Below, in pieces: positions 1,953-2,771 of a DNA stretch of 12,835 bases (its first letter is position 1; each line of letters opens with the position of its first letter). Origin of the DNA: a virus (Duplodnaviria > Heunggongvirae > Uroviricota > Caudoviricetes); IMG/VR virus record IMGVR_UViG_2579778894_000012; one strand, given 5' to 3'. Below the pieces are notes generated by a model. The model searched no databases. It saw nothing but the letters and a program-made list of their open reading frames with translations, and was not told the origin of the DNA. The position numbers and the translations under genes are program-made.

Positions 1953-2771
1953 TCACCCCCTGAATCCTACCGGGATCTGGCTGTAGTCCACATTGTCGTA
2001 ACTGGCTTTGAAGTACGGGTCCTCGCGTCTGGCTGCAGATACCGCAGGAACTTCCCAGGATTCTTCGAAATGACGATCCGGACCAAAGAACGTGACAGCC
2101 TGTTTCACAAATTGTGTGCCGCTGTTACCCATCGCAGATACCCAGCCCGCGTAGCGTTTCACACCTTCCAGCATGGTTTCGGGGTTTACCCCCTCATTCA
2201 AACGGGCTTTCCAGGCTTTGAAGGCTGCAGATTTTGAATTGCCACCAGCACGTTTGGGATATACCAGCCATGCCTGCTCAAACTCCGGAGAGTATTCCGG
2301 TCGGTTTGAACGAACTCGCACAGACTCATCAGCAGATGCACCAACAGCTATTGGTTCATTGACTGGTTCTTTGACTGGTTCAAAAGAGTGACTGGTTCTG
2401 GGTGAATCTCCTGCACTACCCCCTGGTGCAACTCCTGCACTACCTGGTGAATTTGCTGCACCAGATAGTGAATTATTTGCACTACCCCCTAGTGAATCTC
2501 CTGCACCATCCAGATGAAGGAGATAGATATTACTTGAGTTACCTTTTTCACCTTTCCGGGTGACTTTTTTTACCAGCCCGGACTCACAAAGGGCCGCAAT
2601 ATGATTCATCACAGAACGTTTGCTAATCTCGCACTGATCAGCAATATGCTGGTAGCTGGGCCAGCACTCCCCCTGATCGCTGGCATTATCAGCCAGCTTG
2701 ATCAGAACCAGTTTTCGCAATGGATTTCCCACTCGAATTTTCATCGCTTTAACCATCAGCTCCATACTCAT
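1953..2771 (-). CDS. Phage replication initiation protein: N-terminal HTH, Gly/Ser/Ala linker, DnaT-like C-terminus
   Basis: 272 aa; N-terminal LRKLVLIKLADNASDQGECWPSYQHIADQCEISKRSVMNHIAALCESGLV is a replication-initiator-type HTH; C-terminal SQIPVGFRG resembles the DnaT terminus (recalled); linker is encoded by DNA iterons. Confidence 0.7.
   Translation of the reverse strand: MSMELMVKAMKIRVGNPLRKLVLIKLADNASDQGECWPSYQHIADQCEISKRSVMNHIAALCESGLVKKVTRKGEKGNSSNIYLLHLDGAGDSLGGSANNSLSGAANSPGSAGVAPGGSAGDSPRTSHSFEPVKEPVNEPIAVGASADESVRVRSNRPEYSPEFEQAWLVYPKRAGGNSKSAAFKAWKARLNEGVNPETMLEGVKRYAGWVSAMGNSGTQFVKQAVTFFGPDRHFEESWEVPAVSAARREDPYFKASYDNVDYSQIPVGFRG
2350..2510. repeat. Iteron-like direct repeats inside the replication initiator gene (candidate origin)
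   Basis: TGACTGGTTC at 2360, 2372, 2389; CTGCAC(T/C)A at 2411, 2435, 2455, 2478 (TTGCAC), 2501; GTGAAT at 2402, 2447, 2468, 2492; spacing roughly 21-24 bp. Confidence 0.5.

Follow-up and report, generated by a model that had tools for sequence, protein, structure and literature searches.

An origin of replication inside the initiator gene is textbook knowledge for phages lambda, P22 and L. The question raised by the locus described here is whether a prophage whose initiator belongs to another, very common protein family carries its origin in the same place. The window, that is, the whole stretch of DNA that was analyzed (12,835 nucleotides; IMG/VR virus record IMGVR_UViG_2579778894_000012, Caudoviricetes), encodes a replication initiator whose gene contains short repeats, and a sequence-only reading of the window, made without database searches, had proposed that these repeats are the iterons of a candidate prophage origin. 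This interpretation is strongly supported by the comparative evidence presented below. We propose that positions 2347-2506 constitute the replication origin of a lambdoid prophage of the Stx/SfV/ST64B type (Stx, Shiga toxin), located within the linker-coding part of its own initiator gene, a reading to which we assign a probability of roughly 0.75; the dyad-symmetric repeats are almost certainly the sites to which the initiator encoded by the same gene binds.

Repeats within the initiator gene

Exact matching and Tandem Repeats Finder (TRF) located both repeat motifs where the sequence-only reading had placed them, and the tandem-repeat analysis that it had suggested reported the same arrays, which are the sole substantial tandem arrays in the 12.8 kb window. 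What had been described as two repeat families, CTGCAC(T/C)A and GTGAAT, are really the two arms of one 15-bp dyad, GTG(C/A)A-N5-T(T/G)CAC, in which CTGCAC forms the right arm and GTGAAT the left arm. The pattern GTGMAWNNNYTGCAC has exactly five matches on the + strand, starting at positions 2402, 2426, 2447, 2468 and 2492; when one mismatch was allowed, seven matches were found in the window compared to 0.69 expected, and this number was reached in 0 of 200 shuffles. The spacing of 21-24 bp that had been claimed for the repeats holds for the dyads (24/21/21/24 bp), but not for TGACTGGTTC, which is present in exactly three copies (starts 2360, 2372 and 2389) separated by 12 and 17 bp and occurs nowhere else in the 12.8 kb. 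The dyads encode residues 89-123 of the 272-residue initiator and the TGACTGGTTC repeats encode residues 124-140; the placement of the repeats (residues 89-140) in the linker-coding part between a helix-turn-helix N-domain and a C-domain was borne out by an AlphaFold2 model, in which the N-domain occupies residues 1-88 and a helical C-domain was modelled at residues 160-217. Furthermore, the iteron array folds better than shuffled sequences as single-stranded DNA (ssDNA; z -2.6 and -2.8), as is predicted from its dyad symmetry.

Dyads across homologues

The locus was compared with homologues from nine phages and 80 prophage loci of Gammaproteobacteria genomes, as well as with 80 near-identical viral contigs, and the best 5-N5-5 dyad at each locus was called by an automated search. 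At least three dyads (3-7) were present between the winged-helix domain and a conserved DNA box (described below) in 84 of the 89 homologous loci; the mean number was 4.45 dyads per locus, whereas control stretches of equal length from these genes gave 1.8 and 1.7, and 97% of 303 dyad spacings measured 21-24 bp. An array with a period of 21-24 bp directly follows the winged-helix domain in every homologue, and the sequence of the unit differs between them, being GGGCA-N5-TGCCC in F451 and Min27, GTGAC-N5-GTCAC in mEp044 and TGCCA-N5-TGGCA in a Klebsiella phage. The class with the recognition helix RSTVRKH was poorly fitted by the dyad caller; by eye, this class has four GTAGGCC-N5 units that are 21, 21 and 24 bp apart, including one perfect GTAGGC-N5-GCCTAC palindrome.

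The sequence-only reading had named a conserved protein linker with unconserved DNA repeats as the observation that would speak against an origin, and the opposite was found: the peptides encoded by the repeats are unrelated between homologues (GAGDSLG, GGAGAAR, MPADSTG, PPMPSDG and VVTQSH), while the DNA architecture is kept. In 61 of the 89 loci the dyads are read in at least two frames within one gene, because spacings of 23 and then 22 bp are common, and such a pattern would be impossible for a peptide repeat. The number of repeats also varies, as had been anticipated. Phage cdtI carries an exact 66-bp duplication that corresponds to three units and has eight dyads, near-identical alleles have 4-6 dyads, and closely related initiator protein clusters span 242-302 residues. 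Truncated or frame-shifted initiator copies of 133 and 118 residues, found at two genome loci (L111 and L142, respectively), retain the dyads and the box.

Covariation of the recognition helix and the half-site

The sequence of the dyad half-site tracks residues 51-57 of the recognition helix across the homologues. The half-site is GTG(C/A)A for helices of the form [KR]RS[VA][MIV]xH, GTGAC for those with MRH or MRA at their end, TGCC(A/G) for K[SAT][AST][VA]RxH, GGGCA for RSTVKxH, including RSTVKSH, and GTGTA for both RTTAINH and RKTAIGH. The sole difference between the helix motif of the window, KRSVMNH, and that of two loci in the GTGAC class (L136 and L143) is N56R. These pairings were reproduced on independent viral contigs, which were chosen by a different DNA pattern. 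Covariation of this kind is the signature expected if the sites are recognised by the domain whose coding region immediately precedes them, and it would provide a natural recognition code leading from helix residues to half-sites, in which N56R, for example, is predicted to switch GTGCA to GTGAC.

An invariant box adjoining the array

The box next to the last dyad has the sequence CCAGAACCAGTCACTCTTTTGAACCAGTCAATGAACC (35-37 bp, coding strand) and comprises two GAAYCAGTCA direct repeats 17 bp apart and a GAACC; the TGACTGGTTC repeats belong to it, and the third TGACTGGTTC copy shares GGTTC (2365-2369) with it. Among near-identical alleles the number of GAACCAGTCA copies ranges from 2 to 5, resulting in gene lengths of 807, 819, 831 and 843 bp. 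The box is nearly invariant in 89 of 89 homologous loci from Enterobacterales, Pseudomonas, Shewanella and Pasteurellaceae, at 81 of 84 loci its first nucleotide lies exactly 15 nt beyond that of the last dyad, and it was found downstream of the initiator N-domain family in all 111 evaluable occurrences on viral contigs.

Codon usage was compared between the box and the remainder of the same genes. At box positions with an unchanged amino acid, 93-100% of the loci use one and the same codon, and those codons make up 10-62% of the usage elsewhere in these genes. AGA is used in 52 of 52 cases (10% of Arg codons elsewhere), AGT in 52 of 52 (15%), TCT in 54 of 54 (11%), GAA in 55 of 55, CCA in 43 of 46 and GTC in 50 of 51, the background use of these codons in the same genes being 10-47%. 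In contrast, just 49% of the 67 non-redundant loci share the most frequent codon at conserved columns of the N-domain; in these loci the GC content at third codon positions (GC3) ranges from 0.32 to 0.88. The changes that do occur in the box, of which about 100 are tolerated, are nearly all non-synonymous (for example, ACC to ATC; TTT to TCT, CTT, TTA or CCT; AAT to AAA, ATT, ATA or AAG), and the ordinary variation seen at the adjoining Pro codon delimits the box. Six intact genes have lost 2 nt from the spacer, so that the first half of the box is read in another frame, as HPEPVTLEPVNES instead of PRTSHSFEPVNEP; the second half (EPVNE) is read in a single frame in all intact genes, and two truncated pseudogenes keep the box. 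Since synonymous change is lacking while non-synonymous changes and frame switches are tolerated, these data argue that the constraint on the box acts on the DNA, and that it is tied to the initiator family rather than to the helicase system. By the same comparisons, the TGACTGGTTC repeats are read as part of the family-invariant box and not as specificity iterons.

No fitting consensus site for IHF or Fis was seen in the box when it was checked by eye. One inverted copy of a box unit, CAGAACCAGT at 2703-2712 (+), lies ~300 bp away in the codons for a conserved KLVL peptide; it is probably a coincidence, because codon use at the KLVL columns is variable in the homologues.

Exchange of C-terminal domains, partner genes and tails

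Across the family, the N-domain, the dyads and the box form a cassette that is combined with several unrelated C-domains and partner genes. Many relatives have a P-type, DnaC-type or DnaB-type partner gene, and the partners represent at least five helicase-recruitment solutions: a lambda-P-type loader; a DnaC/IstB-type loader with or without a DnaB-type helicase; a DnaB-type helicase; a primase-helicase; and none, as in the window. A cassette that stays constant across these solutions is what would be expected of an origin together with its binding domain. The window-type C-domain was also found apart from the N-domain in other phages, and three natural chimeras (P0064, P0069 and P0072) carry an F451-type or Klebsiella-type N-domain with its own iterons on a window-type C-domain. 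The junction in these chimeras lies in or at the box, which appears to act as a module-exchange point as well.

The extreme C-terminus of the initiator is likewise variable. The same C-domain is found with alternative tails (...DYSQIPxGFRG, ...SGFSEQDYGxxxxNW, ...MSDDFGESGENLNF and ...MSDKFGKSSDKLTF; A3 alignment, L092-L171), and the class of the tail goes with the type of the partner gene across the family; tails of the forms W..E.W.DF[IL] and ...EDPLI precede lambda-P-type loaders, with which they overlap by 1-4 nt. The tail SQIPxGFRG is present on at least two unrelated C-domains of phage initiators and on host DnaT. At locus L095, in which the C-domain is a different one, 12 of the last 19 residues are identical to DnaT (E 2e-7; 3361-3418) and a DnaC-like gene comes next, an order that mirrors the host dnaT-dnaC operon (E. 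coli dnaT: L011 2979-3518). Based on this distribution, the SQIPxGFRG tail may be a portable docking motif; a function for the C-terminal tail of DnaT is not discussed in a 2026 review or in a 2026 structure paper on the preprimosome.

A model of the origin and its alternatives

In the proposed mechanism, dimers of the N-domain would bind the five dyads GTG(C/A)A-N5-T(T/G)CAC, which, being about two helical turns apart, could give rise to an O-some-like nucleoprotein array. This array would end in fixed register on the 35-37 bp box of GAAYCAGTCA direct repeats, most likely the origin core, where the duplex would be opened and/or a second contact would be made by a conserved part of the initiator or by a host factor. 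The C-domain and the DnaT-like tail would then recruit host DnaB-DnaC, which is presumed because the phage encodes no helicase, loader or primase, and theta replication would follow, probably helped by transcription from pR through the gene, as in lambda. The anatomy of the sequence and its conservation, the covariation with the recognition helix, the DNA-level constraint and the gene content were observed directly, whereas binding, unwinding at the box, helicase recruitment and origin activity are what we infer for this locus. The box is the best candidate for the unwinding site on the strength of where it lies, of its register with the dyads and of its conservation at the DNA level. With considerable doubt, we also consider that the box could be a new kind of sequence-specific element for origin opening and helicase entry, read (possibly as ssDNA) by the near-invariant first ~48 residues of the initiator, with the variable helix reading the dyads and the SQIPxGFRG tail serving as a portable motif, shared with DnaT, that docks DnaC-DnaB. 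If true, this proposal would explain 'initiator-solo' phages and would give a function to the uncharacterised C-terminus of DnaT.

However, it should be noted that several observations weigh against an origin at this position. No AT-rich tract was found beside the array, the flank containing 53-57% AT compared to 52.5% for the whole window, and the least stable 50-bp stretch in 2331-2420 lies only at the 15th percentile of the window. The DnaA box TTATNCACA, with at most one mismatch, does not occur in 1953-2771, and its count in the whole window is at chance. The box has no hairpin potential as ssDNA (z 0.45 and -0.54) and no factor assigned to it. The table of helix and half-site covariation ignores phylogeny, with no correction for kinship, and the five dyads of the window itself share one reading frame, so the argument that the DNA and not the peptide is conserved rests on the homologues. 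Finally, the literature searched contains no experiment in which binding or origin activity was demonstrated, either in this phage or in other members of the family.

The dyads could alternatively be initiator sites with a regulatory purpose, the origin being elsewhere; they could mediate autoregulation, act as a transcriptional roadblock in the early-right operon, or control copy number by handcuffing. Plasmid iterons serve initiation and control alike, in plasmid Rep systems a dyad-symmetric site to which a dimer binds is usually an operator, and an array without an adjacent AT-rich tract would suit such a role. Nevertheless, the array lies midway along a gene and downstream of that gene's start, where an operator would be badly placed, it is in fixed register with a box that is constrained as DNA, the 12.8 kb window has no other repeat array or obvious origin-like region, and the identical layout is a proven origin in lambda; a regulatory role with an origin elsewhere is therefore regarded as unlikely.

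It might also be argued that the repeats simply reflect a low-complexity Gly/Ser/Ala/Pro linker that expands and contracts by slippage, and that they have no role in cis, given that they encode a predicted disordered linker, that the units of the window are in frame and produce repeated peptides, and that copy number varies as slippage predicts. A linker, however, needs no internal dyad symmetry in each unit, and it is the geometry of the DNA that is conserved and not the linker peptides; the units lie in two or three frames within one gene at 61 of the 89 loci, the half-site co-varies with the recognition helix, and the box is essentially without synonymous change, all of which leaves slippage strongly disfavoured and very improbable. 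The box, for its part, might not be a replication element, being instead a protein motif (PRTSHSFEPVNEP) or a joint at which homologous recombination exchanges N- and C-domains. In the recombinants P0064, P0069 and P0072 the box is indeed the precise point at which a foreign N-domain with its iterons meets the window-type C-domain, it is the last segment common to modules with different C-domains, and the EPVNE half is held in one frame in all intact genes. The codon pattern, in contrast, is opposite to that of selection at the protein level (no synonymous changes, many radical non-synonymous changes and a frame switch in the first half), and recombination alone cannot hold 35 nt near-identical from Pasteurellaceae to Pseudomonas over a GC3 range of 0.32-0.88. 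The register of the box with the last iteron is also fixed, and a role as a joint may be a consequence of the conservation rather than its cause; we consider it quite unlikely that the box has no part in replication. An origin within the initiator gene, with the dyads as initiator sites and the box as its core, is accordingly the reading that we retain.

The initiator protein and its gene neighbourhood

The initiator matched the Pfam family HTH_36 (PF13730) at residues 17-67 with a score above the gathering threshold (E 1.8e-11; 44.1 bits, cut-off 25), and the N-domain scanned alone gave a weaker match to DnaD_N (PF21984; 27.8 bits, cut-off 27). The protein also matched PHROG 270, 'replication initiation protein' (E 4e-88), and residues 135-272 matched PHROG families designated 'replication protein', 'DnaD-like helicase loader' and 'primosomal protein'. 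In the AlphaFold2 model, which was built on a 30-sequence alignment, the N-domain consists of helices at residues 3-11, 17-29, 40-47 and 51-63 and a beta-hairpin wing at residues 67-85. A Foldseek search with this N-domain model returned only generic winged-helix folds, the DnaD N-domain 2v79 among them, and a sequence search of the PDB with the initiator found no relative. The C-domain, presumed to be the domain that recruits the host replisome, matched no Pfam family, and PF13814, assigned to Eru6 in PMC8951638, was not recovered in Pfam scans of the window initiator.

The gene is of the type found in the 'Eru6' replication region of Stx phages and belongs to the same family as SfV orf39 and ST64B sb42. 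Its DNA is 98-99% identical in phiSTEC1575-Stx2k, SfV (orf39), mEp460, cdtI and Stx2a_WGPS2, the last of which is the Eru6 representative (PMC8951638). Matches to the initiator gene were present in 2352 of 5426 complete E. coli genomes, with 897 covering at least 80% of the gene, and more than 5400 protein clusters of the family were found. Existing annotation describes the initiator simply as a 'helix-turn-helix domain-containing protein' and marks no origin.

The neighbourhood in the window is that of a lambdoid early-right operon, with genes for CI, a Cro-like and a CII-like protein, Rha/Ash and a small open reading frame (ORF) preceding the initiator. The initiator is followed by PerC-like, Dam, LexA-like and RusA genes, the PerC-like gene often being named yfdN, as in the K-12 prophage CPS-53; there is no adjacent loader or helicase partner (P, DnaC-like or DnaB-like). 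No gene for a helicase, loader or primase was found in the window, and none is annotated in nt 1-22039 of the 99%-identical phiSTEC1575-Stx2k (46.6-kb genome), these 22 kb covering the early region, from the immunity genes to Q/stx and lysis.

Two Rfam matches at the gathering level, to C4 antisense RNA at 3589-3676 (-; 68.4 bits) and to the Hfq-binding small RNA isrK at 3701-3777 (-; 60 bits), sit within the long 'Rha/Ash' ORF at 2989-4002, and a Pfam match to Phage_ASH (residues 72-166, about 3505-3789) overlaps the DNA of both. Either the real Rha gene starts downstream of the C4 and isrK RNAs, or the Ash 'domain' is in part the translation of RNA genes. Other genes of the prophage segment encode a YafO-family toxin, an RdgC-like protein, an Rv2179c-like 3'-5' exonuclease and a small protein made up of a LexA DNA-binding domain. 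The coordinates of all features are listed in Table 1.

Table 1. Positions of the initiator gene, its domains, the repeats and other genes in the window
Feature	Position	Strand	Basis or sequence
Replication initiator gene	1953..2771	-	ORF list and translation; 272 residues
Winged-helix DNA-binding N-domain, residues 1-88	2508..2771	-	AlphaFold2 block-mean pLDDT (predicted local distance difference test) 69-91
Recognition helix of the N-domain	residues 51-63 (KRSVMNHIAALCE)	-	AlphaFold2; residues 51-57 co-vary with the half-site
Predicted disordered linker, residues 89-157, holding the dyads and the box	2301..2507	-	AlphaFold2 pLDDT <50 for residues 92-157
Iteron 1 (first in gene order)	2492..2506	.	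GTGAATCTCCTGCAC on the + strand, GTGCAGGAGATTCAC on the coding strand
Iteron 2	2468..2482	.	GTGAATTATTTGCAC
Iteron 3	2447..2461	.	GTGAATTTGCTGCAC
Iteron 4	2426..2440	.	GTGCAACTCCTGCAC, perfect 5-N5-5 palindrome GTGCA-N5-TGCAC
Iteron 5	2402..2416	.	GTGAATCTCCTGCAC; directly adjoins the conserved box
Family-invariant 37-bp DNA box	2365..2401	-	Coding strand in the window CCAGAACCAGTCACTCTTTTGAACCAGTCAAAGAACC
Extra 12-bp box-repeat unit and degenerate fourth copy	2347..2364	-	Third TGACTGGTTC copy 2360-2369; TGGTTCA 2352-2358
Helical C-domain, about residues 158-240	2052..2300	-	AlphaFold2 helices 162-170, 180-193 and 197-214
DnaT-like tail SQIPVGFRG, last nine residues	1956..1982	-	8/9 identical to the E. 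coli DnaT C-terminus SQIPPGFRG
YafO-family toxin gene	11247-11681	-	
LexA DNA-binding-domain small protein gene	486-812	-	
RdgC-like gene	6146-7264	+	
Rv2179c-like 3'-5' exonuclease gene	10336-10911	+	

Comparison with known systems

What appears to be new here is the extension of the intragenic origin to an unrelated and very common initiator family, the code that relates the helix to the half-site, and the invariant box. No description of the helix code, the box or the origin of this family was found in the literature searched, and an earlier prediction beyond that literature is possible; searching the text for the repeat sequences brought up nothing but unrelated lists of primers, and the Eru papers, PMC8951638 among them, mention no iterons or origin for the Eru6 type. 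This initiator family drives replication of Eru6-type Shiga-toxin phages, and the switch between lysogeny and lysis, in which CI represses the replication genes, is linked to Stx production and disease severity in the Eru papers (PMC8951638). The 35-bp element, seemingly under pure DNA-level selection across Gammaproteobacteria, is offered for direct testing, and the DnaT-like tails may provide a handle on how the host helicase machinery is recruited.

The intragenic-origin systems to which the locus can be likened are lambda gene O, the Stx phages 933W and P27, P22 gene 18 and phage L gene 18. Iteron number differs between lambda (4) and Stx phages (6) and alters the length of the protein (PMC7466680), and such variation is seen in lambda-type relatives and in the window family alike. 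In both lambda and the window, the initiator gene itself houses the array, in the segment that separates the DNA-binding N-domain from the C-domain, the sites are dyad-symmetric and follow one another at intervals of about two helical turns (in O, four 18-bp sites 20-24 bp apart; in the window, five 15-bp sites 21-24 bp apart), and the initiator gene is in the early-right operon after cII. The parallel with lambda that the sequence-only reading had drawn holds for this architecture, but it does not extend to homology, as no similarity of the initiator to lambda O was detected (hhalign probability 6%) and Phage_rep_O (PF04492) gave no match even at E values up to 10. Nor does it extend to the AT-rich tract, in place of which the invariant box of GAAYCAGTCA repeats adjoins the last site of the window array. 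Also unlike lambda, the window phage has no P gene, and its initiator ends in a DnaT-like tail.

Proteins of the DnaD/HTH_36 group resemble the window N-domain in their Pfam matches and in the fold of the DnaD N-domain (2v79); DnaD, however, is not known to recognise an origin in a sequence-specific way through iterons within its own gene. DnaT and the initiator have their extreme C-terminal nine residues in common, eight of which are identical, and the rest of the protein is without similarity: homology over the N- and C-terminal domains of DnaT was not found, the last nine residues being the only ones that align, and there was no match to the NCBIfam DnaT family.

Plasmid iterons are direct repeats that are bound by monomers and lie outside the rep gene, and plasmid origins usually have DnaA boxes and an AT-rich DNA unwinding element (DUE). 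Iteron plasmids (pPS10 RepA, F RepE, R6K pi and RK2 TrfA) are like the window in having winged-helix initiators and repeated sites of ~20 bp. Unlike in these plasmids, neither a DnaA box nor an AT-rich DUE was found at the window array, the specificity sites are palindromic and intragenic, and only the box consists of direct repeats. For this box the plasmid DUE offers a model: iteron plasmids have a second set of sequence-specific repeats in the unwinding region, the DUE 13-mers, which are bound as ssDNA by Rep (PMC4081077).

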